From an uncultured Anaerolineales bacterium (GTDB lineage: Bacteria; Chloroflexota; Anaerolineae; Anaerolineales; UBA4823): a stretch of DNA of 64,000 nt. Positions within the stretch are counted from its first letter, which is position 1, and the number at the start of each line of letters is the position of its first letter. Below are positions 45,595-50,485 of the stretch, in pieces. The notes beneath the pieces were generated by a model that worked only from the letters and a program-made list of their open reading frames with translations, made no database searches and was not told the DNA's origin. Location: the NCBI GenBank assembly GCA_937928795.1, contig CALFWB010000040.1, positions 98,496 through 162,495 on the forward strand, read 5' to 3'. Both the position numbers and the translations under genes were made by a program.

Positions 45595-46296
45595 CTAGAT
45601 TGAAAAATCTTCTCCGTGCCAAACGCCCTGAATTGGACTATGGATTTCGGGCTCTTTGTGGTGATGACCATCAATCCTTTCCTCTAATCGCTTTACGTGC
45701 TCAATGAGCTGGGCTAGAGTTTCGCCGATAGCGTCGGGTAAACGCCCATGATCTAAGTCGGGCTTACCGTTCTGGCGTGGTTGGCTGCGCAGAAGGATCT
45801 GCCCGGGTACACCGACCACCACAGAGTTGGGGGGTACATCCTTAACCACAACAGCGTTTGCCCCAATCCGACTGTTATCACCGATCGTAATCGCTCCTAA
45901 TACTTTTGCTCCTGCCCCAACAACCACATTATTGCCTAAGGTAGGGTGCCGTTTCCCTTTATTGAGACTTGTTCCCCCCAAGGTGACACCATGGTAGAGA
46001 GTTACATTATCACCGATTTCGGTGGTCTCACCGATCACAACACCCATCCCATGATCGATAAAGAAACGTTTGCCGATTTTGGCGCCCGGATGGATTTCGA
46101 TGCCGGTTAATCCCCGCATCAGTTGTGAAAACCATCTGGCGAACAATTTAAGGCGATGAGTCCACAGCCAATGCGCTATGCGATGTCCCCAAACTGCATG
46201 TAAACCTGGATAGCAAAAAAGGACTTCTAGGAAACTGCGCGCAGCCGGATCGCGCTCAAAGACGGATTGAATATCTTCTCGAAGTGATGTAAACAT
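45595..46296 (-). CDS. cysE: Serine O-acetyltransferase
   Basis: [39 protein letters not shown] and GKRHPT. Confidence 0.97.
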
Positions 46297-46418
46297 AGCA
46301 TTATCCCTGAAAACTACCTGCTGTTTGATACCGAATGATTGAGGTTCTGCTGGTTATTTAGAACGCATGAATGAAGTGCACAACTGCACGGATTTCAGCG
46401 TACCGCTTTGGGAGGTTT

Positions 46419-46496
46419 GGCGGGGATTTAGCCGCCGTTGACTTTGTGATTTGGAAAACACAAGGGGAACAACGGCGGTAATTATCCCCGCCGTTT
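46419..46496 (-). promoter_or_regulatory. Alternative-pairing leader structure (attenuator-like segments 1-4) upstream of cysE
   Basis: Segment 1 is 46496-46484, segment 2 is 46479-46470, segment 3 is 46440-46432, segment 4 is 46427-46419. Complementarities are 1:2 (8 bp), 2:3 (9 bp), 3:4 (5 bp) and 1:4 (9 bp). Confidence 0.6.
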
Positions 46497-46535
46497 ACAG
46501 GAGCATGTAAGGTGAGAGTAAATCCTTTTCATCAT
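46482..46535 (-). CDS. Putative cysteine leader peptide MMKRIYSHLTCSCKRRG (17 aa), absent from the ORF track
   Basis: ATG ATG AAA AGG ATT TAC TCT CAC CTT ACA TGC TCC TGT AAA CGG CGG GGA TAA, lying between the promoter and cysE. Confidence 0.6.
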   Translation of the reverse strand: MMKRIYSHLTCSCKRRG

Positions 46536-46558
46536 TGCATGATTGTCTATTGGTTGTA

Positions 46559-46587
46559 ATTGTAAGAAAGAAGATAAAGAATGTCAA
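46559..46587 (-). promoter_or_regulatory. Near-consensus sigma70 promoter for the cysE leader
   Basis: TTGACA (46587-46582), 17-nt spacer, TACAAT (46564-46559). Confidence 0.85.
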
Positions 46588-46650
46588 GACTTTGCGTTTT
46601 TATTAATCTCTCTCTAGTAACTTAATCTAGGGTATAATCGAATTATGAGC

Positions 46651-46724
46651 GGGCGGATAGCTCAGTTGGTTAGAGCGCCTCTCTTACACAGAGGAGGTCG
46701 GGGGTTCGAGTCCCTTTCCGCCCA
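46651..46724 (+). tRNA. tRNA-Val (anticodon TAC), CCA not encoded
   Basis: Acceptor stem GGGCGGA/TCCGCCC, anticodon arm CCTCT-CTTACAC-AGAGG, T-loop GTTCGAGTC. TATAAT at 46633-46638. Confidence 0.96.
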
Positions 46725-46731
46725 TCTGCAG

Positions 46732-46770
46732 TCATCCTATGAAGTTTATCCTTCATAGGATGATTTTATT
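46732..46770 (+). terminator. Intrinsic terminator after tRNA-Val
   Basis: 13-bp perfect stem TCATCCTATGAAG/CTTCATAGGATGA followed by TTTTATT. Confidence 0.8.
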
Positions 46771-47326: not shown

Positions 47327-50300
47327 ATGACAGATTATTTATTCCGGGGTTCTATTGAGGACTTCGATCGCGATCTCAAGGAACTAATAGAGCTGGAAAC
47401 TGAACGACAGGTGCGCAAATTGATCTTGATTCCCAGCGAAAGCACAGCACCTTTGGCGGTTCGTGAAATCCTAAGTTCTGCTTTTCAAAACATCTATGCC
47501 GAAGGATATCCTCCGGAGGAAAGCCGCAGATATAGCGAAAATGAAATCTTCGATTATGATTTTCAACTTTCGTTATATCGGCGATATTCTGATCTGCGCT
47601 ACTATAAGGGGGTCGAATACGCTAACATTGTGGAGATGTTAGCTAGGCGTCGCTGTGCTGAGCTGTTTGCCAACGATAGGGTGAAGGTTGATGATGTTTT
47701 TGTTAACGTCCAAGCGCTCTCGGGTGCACCGGCAAATAATGCCGTTTTCCATGCCTTACTAAACCCCGGTGACCCTATCTTAGGAATGAGTCTGGTACAT
47801 GGGGGGCATCTGACCCATGGCTCTCCGGTCAATCGTTCAGGAAAACTTTATCAAGCTTATCATTACACCGTTGATCCTGAAACAGAACAAATCAATTATG
47901 AAAGCGTTCAAGAATTAGCTGAGCAAGTTCGCCCAAAAATCCTTATTGCGGGCTACTCGTCCTATCCTTGGGCGGTAGATTGGGAGCGCTTTGCTCAAAT
48001 TGCCCATTCTGTGGGTGCTATCTTGATGGCGGACATTGCCCACGTGGCAGGTTTGGTTGCGGCGGGTGTTTATCCCTCTCCGTTGGGTTATGCAGACGTC
48101 ATCACCTTTACAACGCATAAATCCCTCTGCGGTCCGCGCGGGGCGTGTATCCTAACCACCGATGCAACTTTGGCAAAGAAAATCGATCGGGCGGTTTTCC
48201 CAGGCGAGCAGGGTGGTCCGCATGTGAATACCTTTGCAGCCATGGCTTTAGCCTTCAAACTTGCCCAAAGCGAACAATTTCGCCAATTGCAAGCGCAGGT
48301 GGTCAAAAATTGTGCTGCCTTGACCCACAGATTGCGAGAGTTGGGTTGTCGGATTGCTTATGGTGGGAGCAATACCCACCTGACCAATTTGGATTGTCGC
48401 ACGTTTGTCGGTCCAGACGGGACGACCCTTTCAGGTGACCAAGCCGCCCGCATCTTAGATATCGCCGGAATTGTGGTCAATCGCAATACCATCCCCGGTG
48501 ATACATCGGCAGCCGATCCTTCCGGAATACGTATGGGAACACCGTGGATCACCCAACGCGGTCTCAAAGAAGAACAAATGCACAAGATCGCCGAGTTGAT
48601 TGTGGAGTTGTTGCGAGCAACCAAGCCCTATACTTATGCTGTGCGGGTAGCGAATCTACGGCGCGCAAAAGTGGATTTTGATACCCTAGAGACGGTCAAA
48701 ATTCAAGTTCGGCAGTTAGCCGAGCAAGCAGGTTCTGACGAAAAAATTGGCAATCATGGTTATCCGCACTTTTACTTCATTGACGACTCCTATGCTTCCG
48801 ACTCTGGAATGGTTTCATTTGTTATCAAGGGAGATACCGTGCGTCAGTTTTTGAATTACGCTACCGATGTCGATGTTTCTACCCTGGAGCCAGATGAAGC
48901 TTGTCCGGTTCACATTTCTGCGCCGAAATTGAGTGTGGAAGGAATTTTAGCCTGCCGTGCAGAGAGAGAATTTGTTTTATCCTTGCCGGTCAAAGAAGCT
49001 GCCCATATCGCGGCTTGGTTGCGCGCCCTTTCGGATGGGTACGTTGACTTTGAGCACAAAGAAGGGGCAACCGATCGGGTCATGAAAAAACTGCCCGGCC
49101 CAGTGATTGTCAAAGAAACAGAAAGTAGCCCATTACCGCAAGTGTCCCAGAAGTCCAGTAGCCTCGAAAAGCCCTACTTCATTGGGCTTGGTGGCGGGAA
49201 TGGTGAAGCAAAGCCCGATTTCCAGTGGGTCCAAAGCGAAGGCGAGCTGAAGCGCACTCCCCTGTACGAATTACACCGCCAATTGGGGGCAAAATTGATC
49301 CCCTTTGCCGGGTGGGAGATGCCGGTTTGGTATAGCTCGGTGATTGAGGAACATCAAGCCACCCGCACGGCTGCCGGGTTGTTCGATGTCGCTCATATGG
49401 GGGTTTATCAAGTGGAAGGAGCGGATTCAGCCGCTTTTCTGGATAGCGTATGCGGAAATGACATTGGCGGCTTAGAAGTTGGTGAGTCTTGCTATACCCA
49501 TTTCCTTGATCCCGATGCAAATGTGATTGACGATACGCTGGTTTATCGCCGTGCCCTGGATGCCTTTCTGGTCGTGGTCAATGCTTCCAATGACGATAAG
49601 AATTGGGCCTGGCTGAATGCGGTTTTGGAAGGCAAGGTTTGCATCGATCGCCAACGTCCCTGGGCGCGAGCTTTTGGACGCAAAGCCCGCCTGCGCAACT
49701 TGCGAGACCCCAAAGAAGGCAATGATATGCGGGTAGATATTGCCCTACAGGGTCCAAGATCACGAGAGATCTTATTAGCGTTGGGGGTTGACAACGAAAC
49801 GCGCAAGAAGATCGTAGCCCTGAAGCGTACAGAATTGTGTGATGCGATTGTGGGCGGTTTTGACTTGATCATCTCCCGCACCGGTTATACGGGCGAAAAG
49901 ATGGCATTTGAGCTTTTTGTTCATCCACAGCGCGCTGCCGAGCTGTTTAAAGCCCTACTGGAAAAAGGTGAACCGTTTGGGATCAAACCGGTGGGATTGG
50001 GGGCACGCGATTCGCTCCGCACCGAAGCCGGCTTGCCGCTTTATGGACACGAGATGGGCGAGGGTTCCGGTAAACGCGGTGAACGGGATTTGGGGGTGGC
50101 AGAGGGTGGCTTTGGCAGTTATGTTAAACTCCACAAGCCGTGGTTCATCGGCCGGCAAGCGTTTGTAGAACGCGAAAAGACGCGCAAAGGGGTCGTTGTA
50201 CGCTTTCAGTTTTTGGAGAAGGGCGTGCGGATGGCGCATGGTGGAGATCCGGTCTTGGATAAGCGCGGTCGGGTGATCGGCTGGGTTACCAGTTGTGCTG

Positions 50301-50485
50301 TGGATCAACAAGGTTTTCTAACCGGGCAGGCTTATGTCGAGTTGAAATATGCCGAAGAAGGCACGCGGCTCTTAATCTATCAAGGCTCTCCAGAAAAAGA
50401 GATCAAAGCACCGGCAGCTTTGGCATTGGGAGAGAAATCTGTTTTACCGAGCGAAGCGGTAGTTCTAAGCCGTTTTCCAAAATGA
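47327..50485 (+). CDS. glyA-gcvT: Fusion of serine hydroxymethyltransferase and glycine-cleavage T protein (aminomethyltransferase)
   Basis: SHMT motifs LIPSES, YAEGYP, GGHLTHG, TTHKSLCGPRG and SGIRMGT. GcvT motifs KRTPLY, GLFDVAHMG, RTGYTGE and GLGARDSLRTEAG. One uninterrupted 1052-aa ORF. Confidence 0.93.
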   Translation: MTDYLFRGSIEDFDRDLKELIELETERQVRKLILIPSESTAPLAVREILSSAFQNIYAEGYPPEESRRYSENEIFDYDFQLSLYRRYSDLRYYKGVEYANIVEMLARRRCAELFANDRVKVDDVFVNVQALSGAPANNAVFHALLNPGDPILGMSLVHGGHLTHGSPVNRSGKLYQAYHYTVDPETEQINYESVQELAEQVRPKILIAGYSSYPWAVDWERFAQIAHSVGAILMADIAHVAGLVAAGVYPSPLGYADVITFTTHKSLCGPRGACILTTDATLAKKIDRAVFPGEQGGPHVNTFAAMALAFKLAQSEQFRQLQAQVVKNCAALTHRLRELGCRIAYGGSNTHLTNLDCRTFVGPDGTTLSGDQAARILDIAGIVVNRNTIPGDTSAADPSGIRMGTPWITQRGLKEEQMHKIAELIVELLRATKPYTYAVRVANLRRAKVDFDTLETVKIQVRQLAEQAGSDEKIGNHGYPHFYFIDDSYASDSGMVSFVIKGDTVRQFLNYATDVDVSTLEPDEACPVHISAPKLSVEGILACRAEREFVLSLPVKEAAHIAAWLRALSDGYVDFEHKEGATDRVMKKLPGPVIVKETESSPLPQVSQKSSSLEKPYFIGLGGGNGEAKPDFQWVQSEGELKRTPLYELHRQLGAKLIPFAGWEMPVWYSSVIEEHQATRTAAGLFDVAHMGVYQVEGADSAAFLDSVCGNDIGGLEVGESCYTHFLDPDANVIDDTLVYRRALDAFLVVVNASNDDKNWAWLNAVLEGKVCIDRQRPWARAFGRKARLRNLRDPKEGNDMRVDIALQGPRSREILLALGVDNETRKKIVALKRTELCDAIVGGFDLIISRTGYTGEKMAFELFVHPQRAAELFKALLEKGEPFGIKPVGLGARDSLRTEAGLPLYGHEMGEGSGKRGERDLGVAEGGFGSYVKLHKPWFIGRQAFVEREKTRKGVVVRFQFLEKGVRMAHGGDPVLDKRGRVIGWVTSCAVDQQGFLTGQAYVELKYAEEGTRLLIYQGSPEKEIKAPAALALGEKSVLPSEAVVLSRFPK

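Follow-up and report, generated by a model that had tools for sequence, protein, structure and literature searches.

Does the region in front of cysE, the serine O-acetyltransferase gene of an uncultured Anaerolineales bacterium, contain a device by which translation of cysteine codons sets the expression of the gene behind it? The region occupies positions 46297–46587 of the window, that is, of the whole stretch of 64,000 nucleotides (nt) of DNA that was analysed. We conclude that the cysE leader is probably a cysteine-sensing leader-peptide regulatory element (with a probability of roughly 80%), a reading drawn from sequence comparison and predicted folds. The usual form of the family to which it belongs ends in a terminator that this copy has lost, and the step by which the sensor would act on cysE is considered separately below.

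All features of the leader lie on the minus strand, and its reading begins at 46600 and runs towards lower positions. The controlled gene, the promoter and the mini-gene are as follows.

45595–46296, minus strand: cysE, the controlled gene, encoding a serine O-acetyltransferase of 233 amino acids (TIGR01172, 5.3e-79, 263.9 bits, above cut-off).
46582–46587, minus strand: -35 hexamer TTGACA, read directly in the sequence.
46559–46564, minus strand: -10 hexamer TACAAT, 17 nt past the -35 hexamer and likewise read directly.
46482–46535, minus strand: leader mini-gene MMKRIYSHLTCSCKRRG-stop, 17 codons, ATGATG...TAA, starting ~16 nt past the expected transcription start.
46497–46505, minus strand: sensor codons TGC-TCC-TGT (Cys11-Ser12-Cys13), with TGC at 46505–46503 and TGT at 46499–46497.

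The promoter is well conserved: CTTGACA is unchanged across 20/20 aligned leaders from 10 genera, and at identical spacing the -10 hexamer of relatives reads TACAAT, TAAAAT or TATAAT. The position of the ATG past the -10 hexamer (23 nt here, 10–17 nt in congeners) implies a 5' untranslated region (UTR) of ~3–16 nt. An earlier note on this DNA, made from the letters alone, had described a TTGACA-17-TACAAT promoter followed by an unannotated open reading frame (ORF) with Cys codons 11 and 13 (TGC, TGT); the promoter matches that description base for base, and the ORF is present exactly as described. The note had set the ORF about 16 nt behind the promoter, a distance that holds when counted from the expected transcription start; counted from the -10 hexamer, the ATG is 23 nt away.

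The mini-gene carries a strong evolutionary signature of a translated frame. An in-frame ATG and an identical stop position are found in 7/7 genomes of the genus, with TAA, TGA or TAG as the stop codon, and the middle codon of Cys-x-Cys is UCC throughout (7/7 genomes). The N-termini of the predicted peptides differ among these genomes (MMKRIY, MNRIS, MTRIW, MERTS, MTQRTC and MLTHRFGF), and synonymous changes are seen in Leu codons (CTT/CTC/CTG) and Thr codons (ACA/ACT/ACC). In one congener an in-frame deletion of 3 nt removes a His codon, and in one further genome of the genus the start codon is displaced by 3 nt.

Four complementary segments, with an apical region between the second and the third, extend from the sensor codons towards cysE.

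46484–46496, minus strand: segment 1, AAACGGCGGGGAU, with segment 2 or segment 4 as partner; its last U opens the stop codon.
46470–46479, minus strand: segment 2, ACCGCCGUUG, with segment 1 or segment 3 as partner; the stop codon sits in the 1:2 loop.
46444–46463, minus strand: apical region, C/U-rich and G-poor, with an inner helix UUGUG (46463–46459)/CACAA (46448–46444) seen in folds.
46432–46440, minus strand: segment 3, CAACGGCGG, with segment 2 (the antiterminator in the family) or, weakly, segment 4 as partner.
46419–46427, minus strand: segment 4, AUCCCCGCC, forming 9 base pairs (bp) with segment 1 or 5 bp with segment 3 (GGCGG/CCGCC).

The predicted fold of the leader beats all 200 shuffles (z = -3.8). 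The structures obtained for the free RNA and for the two ribosome positions were these.

Free RNA: long hairpin 1:4 + 2:3 (~23 bp), the dominant fold, -39.2 kcal/mol.
Free RNA, alternative: 1:2 + 3:4, -26.9 kcal/mol.
Ribosome with Cys13 in the A site: 2:3, -19.2 kcal/mol.
Ribosome at the stop codon: 3:4 with the inner helix, -12.0 kcal/mol.

As judged from the constrained folds and the fixed spacing, the mutually exclusive helices 1:2 and 2:3 of the cysE leader are placed for masking by a ribosome. No U-tract follows segment 4 in this copy. A search of the region against Rfam, at E-values up to 10, returned the neighbouring tRNA as its sole match and no T-box; a T-box or another Rfam family is ruled out at that threshold.

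Most of what the earlier note had said about this part of the leader stands. Its four segments and inner UUGUG/CACAA helix agree with the sequence base for base, its suggestion that 1:4 and 2:3 can form one long hairpin is matched by the dominant fold, and the C-rich, G-poor stretch before cysE, the lack of a U-tract after 3:4 and the lack of a T-box motif were all seen again. Its proposal on masking (of segment 1 by a stall at Cys, of segment 2 by a ribosome at the stop codon) agrees with spacing that is fixed across the wider family. The note had also expected a ribosome at the stop codon to favour 3:4; 3:4 can indeed pair here, but the terminator of the family is formed by segment 3 with a distal arm that runs into a U-tract.

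We propose that the leader would operate in the following way. The promoter appears to be a strong one of the sigma-70 type, and the 17-codon mini-gene, with Cys at positions 11 and 13, would be transcribed first. A ribosome covers ~12 nt beyond its A-site codon, and a stall at the second Cys codon would thus cover segment 1. When Cys-tRNA is scarce, the ribosome would stall with Cys13 in the A site, segment 1 would be covered and 2:3 would pair. When Cys-tRNA is plentiful, the ribosome would reach the stop codon in the 1:2 loop, cover segment 2 and then depart, after which the RNA would settle either as 1:2 + 3:4 or as the long hairpin 1:4 + 2:3. In the usual form of the family, segment 3 would double as the 5' arm of a U-tract terminator, and the logic would be that of trp, with 1:2 as anti-antiterminator, 2:3 as antiterminator, and segment 3 with the distal arm as terminator. 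Cysteine shortage would then lead through the stall and 2:3 to read-through, and cysK-cysE, cysM-like and other sulfur genes would be switched on. For this usual form, comparison among members argues strongly that attenuation is of the trp type.

The element is found immediately upstream of cysE in 6/6 other genomes of the genus. In an oriented alignment of the 7 genus genomes, the promoter, the ORF and segments 1–4 are kept with long invariant blocks, and the 110–190 nt from segment 4 to cysE cannot be aligned among the same genomes. The pair at the base of the 2:3 helix is U-A here, C-G in five congeners and U-G in one. The invariance of mini-gene and segments in seven species next to a diverged spacer points to selection, which implies that the sensor must still do something. 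From the conservation in 6/6 congeners, and from that across the family described below, we judge that the pairing of the segments is more than chance.

Searching the 3.29-Mb draft genome with the element by blastn gave the self-match only, and 9-mer counts of the element across the genome showed no excess. The covariance model and a loose pattern recovered one further copy, at C73:53760-53876 (minus strand), upstream of a gene for a cysM-like cysteine synthase of 321 amino acids (TIGR01138, 348.6 bits, below the cut-off of 394). This copy has the canonical form, in which a mini-gene MVEGALLINCMCSRRGK-stop is followed by a terminator ending in UUUCUUUUUUG.

A separate observation concerns one congener, G004, in which a second GUCCCCGCC occurs ~49 nt past segment 4, with ACAGGAGU before it and UUUGGG after it. 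The ACAGGAGU sequence is complementary to the mini-gene stretch GCUCCUGU. The second GUCCCCGCC may be a partial duplication or the remnant of a terminator arm.

To what extent is the element shared outside the genus? The covariance model R1, which was built from one genus, has matches in 9 genera within the taxonomic family to which this genus belongs; run against 80 pattern-derived loci, it placed only 6 below an E-value of 0.01. Having been built from one genus, R1 is too narrow for the wider family, and the sequences were analysed directly instead. Loci were collected with the pattern TGCNNNTGTNNNNGGCGGGGNNNNNNNCCRCC, and a true member was required to have its stop codon exactly 21 or 24 nt past the first Cys codon and TTGACA upstream. 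Public genomes contain ~66 such true members, all labelled Anaerolineales, Anaerolineae or Chloroflexota, and the named genomes with a family leader include Brevefilum, Bellilinea and Anaerolinea. Among 401 evenly sampled genomes of the class, the strict pattern was found in 20 and the reversed control pattern in 3; the 20 strict matches come mostly from the same order, and three families of other orders are represented as well. The collecting pattern demands both Cys codons, so their presence among its matches is by construction.

An unbiased sample was obtained from the 30 best cysM-like orthologues (30 genomes, ~28 genera), which were chosen by protein and whose upstream DNA was then inspected. 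An ATG-initiated mini-gene, mostly of 11 codons and of the form M-x-x-C-x-C-x-[RGK]-[RQ]-G-x-stop, was present in 30/30 loci. Its stop codon lies 21 or 24 nt past the first Cys codon in 29/30, a GGAG-type Shine-Dalgarno sequence precedes the mini-gene by 5–10 nt in 25/30, and a downstream run of at least five T is found in 27/30. The middle codon varies (ATG in 20 leaders, ACG in 3, TCC in 3, ATC in 2, TCG in 1 and AGC in 1). The third positions of the Cys codons are near fixed across the family, the first codon being TGC in 29/30 (TGT in the remaining one) and the second TGT in 30/30, though one tRNA reads both; sensing of the codons alone does not explain this near-fixed choice. The earlier note had proposed that upstream regions from Anaerolineae be examined for conserved Cys codons and covarying stems. 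C-x-C is present in 30/30 of the loci sampled by protein only, the ORF and its Cys codons are conserved in 7/7 genus genomes, and, as set out below, the 2:3 stem covaries.

The family can be defined by a TTGACA promoter, TGC-NNN-TGT, one codon, [N]GGCGGGG, a stop codon within 0–1 codon, a CCRCC segment 2, a segment 3 complementary to segment 2, a segment 4 that reads CCCCGC and, behind all of these, a cysteine or sulfur gene. Its spacing is fixed: the second Cys codon is followed by 4 nt and then by segment 1, and the stop codon comes 0–1 codon past segment 1. The cysE copy carries every one of these family-defining elements (46587–46419). The genes behind family leaders include cysK (TIGR01139, above cut-off), cysM-like genes, cysK-cysE operons, a rhodanese gene followed by SufE, and a DUF4395 gene followed by a thioredoxin-like one. 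In most members a U-tract (for example GCCGUCUUUUUGUU) lies 30–75 nt past segment 4; outside the genus, the segment-3 region pairs with the 6 nt that immediately precede a genuine U-tract in 57/69 members.

Support for the helices was obtained from pair changes across the family, using a MAFFT alignment (A7) that jittered at its 3' end and served for pair counts only. In the 37-sequence alignment, 5/9 pairs of the 2:3 helix change on both sides; one of them is A-U in 16, G-C in 12 and G-U in 4 sequences, and another is U-A in 10 and C-G in 8. The covariation score of 2:3 is 0.151, compared with 0.111 for shuffles, of which 0/500 reach 0.151, and with 0.05–0.10 for slid registers. Cognate 2:3 duplexes exceed non-cognate ones in stability (-16.3 vs -13.8 kcal/mol, 0/5000 permutations), and the same holds for the duplexes of segment 3 with the terminator arm, 3:6 (-11.8 vs -9.0 kcal/mol, 0/5000 permutations). 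Segment 1 is invariant as GGCGGGG in alignment A7 and segment 4 is kept as CCCCGC in nearly all members, with 1:2 paired in 90.5% of cells and 1:4 in 86%. A compensatory 1:4 change is seen in one relative, where GCAGGG/CCCUGC replaces GCGGGG/CCCCGC. The conserved 1:4 pairing is not accounted for by the trp scheme.

Three further observations on the family are recorded here. Outside the genus, the loop that separates segment 2 from segment 3 contains YCAAC(A/U)G in many members, complementary to a GUUGR just past the U-tract (for example CGGCCAACAG with CUGUUGGCCG); a far longer helix, in which the U-tract is paired as well, would thereby enclose the terminator. A 4:5 antiterminator chain, in which segment 4 would compete with a downstream arm of a local terminator, is possible in some genera (e.g. 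in genome G111), but it is not general and is unfavoured by minimum-energy folds. Behind the cysM-like gene in DAOUMJ010000182.1 lies a gene for a protein of 141 amino acids with a JAMM/MPN-like HSHPDHPSRPSEFD motif. In the CysM-CysO-Mec pathway of M. tuberculosis a thiocarboxylated carrier protein is the sulfur donor, and the pairing of the cysM-like with the JAMM/MPN-like gene recalls that pathway.

How, then, did the cysE copy come to lack a terminator? In a sample drawn by cysE orthology, cysE lies immediately behind a co-oriented cysK in 25/28 usable loci of other genera, and in 18/25 of these a C-x-C leader, by the strict pattern, stands 150–250 nt upstream of cysK, mostly with a distal U-tract. 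A leader placed directly before cysE, with neither cysK between them nor a U-tract, was found in this genus only within that sample. The simplest history would be that the stretch from just past segment 4 through cysK was lost or relocated, and that the terminator was removed with it. The genome has its own cysK elsewhere, at C71:15087-15992 (plus strand), without a Cys leader, and in this genus the regulation of the gene appears to be rewired. Judged by eye, the gene preceding cysK (the two together at C71:14400-15992, plus strand) encodes an Rrf2-family regulator (MKVSKKCDYALRAL...) resembling CymR or IscR.

Next to the leader and divergent from it, a tRNA-Val gene (46651-46724, plus strand) is followed at its 3' end by an intrinsic terminator of canonical form (46728-46770, plus strand), UCAUCCUAUGAAG...CUUCAUAGGAUGA and then UUUUAUU. 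The organism thus uses ordinary U-tract terminators, which makes their absence from the cysE leader meaningful. On the same strand, a single ORF of 1052 amino acids (47327-50485) starts like a serine hydroxymethyltransferase and continues with a GcvT-like aminomethyltransferase part.

Two further features of the leader bear on the output step at this copy.

46297–46418, minus strand: C-rich, G-poor spacer of about 117–120 nt up to the cysE start, non-conserved, a candidate Rho loading region.
46367–46389, minus strand: weak hairpin GUGCA-GUUG-UGCAC (46389–46376) and then UUCAUUCAU, seen in folds, a possible degenerate terminator.

Rho-dependent termination in the C-rich, G-poor leader, which the earlier note had already suggested, is our leading guess for this output, held tentatively and at less than even odds; the base composition and the gene content of the genome are compatible with it. 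The genome contains a rho gene (602.8 bits, above cut-off). With 30% C and 18% G the spacer stands at the ~95th percentile of this genome's upstream regions; C exceeds G in 7/7 spacers of the genus, which reach the 87th–95th percentile in six cases and the ~68th in the seventh. In the apical loop, which joins segment 2 to segment 3, G makes up 9% in the genus, compared with 21% in other members. A 2:3 helix formed on stalling would close off the C-rich apical region as a loop, and less Rho would load.

Several points weigh against reading the cysE leader as a cysteine-sensing element, or against the output just suggested for it. The U-tract terminator is not conserved in the genus and is not present at this copy, so that the very element which defines the output of classical attenuators is absent. 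No Shine-Dalgarno sequence was found before the mini-gene in this genus, which leaves the evolutionary signature alone to support its translation. The near invariance of 1:2 and 1:4 makes them uninformative either way, and the covariation tests control only partly for shared ancestry. As to Rho, the polarity comes out wrong if segment 4 and the spacer are simply taken as the Rho utilization (rut) site: a stall would then leave more of the C-rich RNA single-stranded. The polarity is correct only if the apical region matters, and the C over G skew of the spacers is modest.

Other outputs can be set beside Rho. Intrinsic termination might take place at the weak local hairpin with its interrupted U-stretch UUCAUUCAU, decayed or evolved anew and influenced by the sensor, which we regard as unlikely. 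Hairpin and U-rich run are visible in the folds of this leader, and at similar distances two congeners show CCUUCC..GGAAGG followed by UUUUUCU (G006) and CUGUUC..GAGCAG followed by AUUUUU (G003); a third has a weaker CAGGAUG..CAUCCUG followed by UUCACUC (G005), and a loose UUCAYNC motif repeats among the spacers of the genus. The stem here is, however, merely 5 bp and its U-run is interrupted by C and A, nothing comparable occurs in G004, G001 or G002, and no alternative pairing was found that joins segments 1–4 to the hairpin with the correct polarity. A U-followed partner for segment 3, of the kind that segment 6 provides in the family, was also sought in the seven cysE leaders, with only weak, non-conserved candidates as the result. 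Control might instead be translational, with the Cys-codon stretch GCUCCUGU or segment 4 masking the cysE ribosome-binding site and a stall freeing it, for which there is a precedent in mycobacteria (Canestrari et al., 10.1101/834739). The resemblance of GCUCCUGU to an anti-Shine-Dalgarno sequence, the UCC middle codon kept throughout the genus, and the minimum-energy folds of several congeners, in which CUCCU of the mini-gene pairs with the cysE ribosome-binding region, are consistent with such masking. CUCCU is nevertheless complementary to any Shine-Dalgarno sequence, so this pairing carries little information, and the partners are 200 nt apart. Across the seven leaders the ensemble accessibility of the site showed no consistent change between the free, stalled and at-stop states, and the Cys region contributes little of the site's pairing in 5/7. 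Masking by the Cys-codon stretch is not supported by this thermodynamic folding, and we consider translational control of this kind quite unlikely. The chance is smaller again, in our estimate, that the long hairpin 1:4 + 2:3 is a processing site, for instance for RNase III, at which cleavage destabilises the cysE mRNA when cysteine is plentiful. Such processing would have the correct polarity, the hairpin requiring segment 1 to be free of ribosome; the hairpin is the dominant fold, and 1:4 is conserved family-wide though the trp-type scheme does not need it. It is, however, equally conserved in members that have the terminator.

Two explanations would remove the sensing function altogether. 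The leader could be a relic that has regulated nothing since the deletion and now provides only a promoter and a 5' UTR; the terminator and cysK are indeed missing here, unlike in the leader-cysK-cysE arrangement of other genera, but the retention of the mini-gene and all four segments in seven species beside a diverged spacer would be unexpected without selection, and a relic seems decidedly improbable. Almost no chance is given to a palindrome of the repetitive extragenic palindromic (REP) type, or to a ligand- or protein-binding RNA unrelated to translation. The four segments can make one long imperfect palindrome, and the earlier note had raised the concern that the GGCGGGGAT...CCGCCGTTG unit might recur genome-wide as an inverted REP doublet. 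That concern was not borne out: just two copies exist in the genome, each upstream of a cysteine gene, and the blastn search and 9-mer counts refute a REP or other dispersed repeat. Rfam gave no match, and the mini-gene keeps its frame, its start, its stop position and both Cys codons while the middle codon and N-terminus vary. A cysteine-sensing leader peptide is thus the reading that we retain for the cysE leader. With the loss of the terminator in mind, it is conceivable, if doubtful, that the leader-peptide sensor outlived the deletion and was re-coupled to a new output. On that view Rho could load on the apical loop and the spacer, or the long hairpin could be cleaved.

These results would extend ribosome-mediated amino-acid sensing to the cysteine genes of Chloroflexota, and they suggest that Anaerolineae possess a ribosome-directed cysteine regulon which is similar to the mycobacterial 'ribulon' and follows a different, terminator-based design. 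The motif can be used to flag sulfur and cysteine genes in genomes of uncultured Anaerolineae. The presence in one genome of a form with a terminator (cysM-like) and a form without (cysE) offers a clean comparison with a built-in control, by which one could learn what such a sensor is able to do once its intrinsic terminator is gone. If re-coupling is true, the sensor and the expression platform of an attenuator can evolve separately, and this genus would represent a natural experiment.

How does the element compare with known systems? In common with trpL, hisL, leuL, thrL and pheL of E. coli and Salmonella, it has a promoter-proximal mini-gene with codons for the end product and a stop codon between segments 1 and 2. 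The helices 1:2 and 2:3 overlap as in those classical attenuators, the controlled genes make the amino acid that is sensed, and in most members of the Anaerolineae family segment 3 also forms the U-tract terminator. Unlike the classical attenuators, the family belongs to the phylum Chloroflexota and would sense cysteine by two codons split by a variable one (C-x-C); segment 1 has an additional partner in a conserved fourth segment, which makes the long 1:4 + 2:3 hairpin possible, and the cysE copy lacks a terminator. Leader ORFs that decide Rho termination in C-rich leaders without an intrinsic terminator are known from tnaC of E. coli and from mgtL/mgtA and mgtP/mgtCBR of Salmonella. In tna the stalled ribosome physically covers a rut site beside the stop codon, whereas the stall site of the cysE leader lies upstream of a G-rich segment, so that any effect would be exerted via RNA structure; the participation of Rho here is our inference.

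As to systems that sense cysteine, Seliverstov et al. 2005 (PMC1262725) predicted leader ORFs with Cys codons before the cys and cbs genes of Actinobacteria; these leaders lack terminators, and Rho was suggested for them. In Mycobacterium smegmatis, polycysteine leaderless short ORFs are cysteine-responsive translational attenuators that form a 'Cys ribulon' (Canestrari et al. 2020, bioRxiv 10.1101/834739). The Anaerolineae leaders resemble these mycobacterial ORFs in that a short ORF with Cys codons would sense Cys-tRNA, in that several cysteine or sulfur loci per genome are involved, in the absence of an intrinsic terminator at the cysE copy, and in a 5' UTR that is predicted to be short or absent in this genus. 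They differ in that the mycobacterial ORFs have consecutive Cys runs and start at the first base of the transcript, whereas the Cys codons here are always C-x-C and never CC, and the two groups have no sequence relationship. Brewer et al. 2021 (PMC8632094) described the uORFC-8-2 element, which lies upstream of cysS in Rhodobacterales and combines an upstream ORF that has two Cys codons with a terminator. It shares with the wider Anaerolineae family two conserved Cys codons, stems and an intrinsic terminator, and has likewise been read as ribosome-mediated attenuation in response to Cys-tRNA; unlike the Anaerolineae leader, it has tandem Cys codons inside the first stem, precedes a cysteinyl-tRNA synthetase gene and belongs to Alphaproteobacteria, and the two differ in sequence and architecture. 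The earlier note knew of no description in Chloroflexota, and literature searches for such elements in Chloroflexi and Anaerolineae, whose coverage lacked many subscription papers, likewise found none. The kind of system is thus a known one, its Anaerolineae family appears to be undescribed, and the cysE copy is an atypical, terminator-less member of that family.

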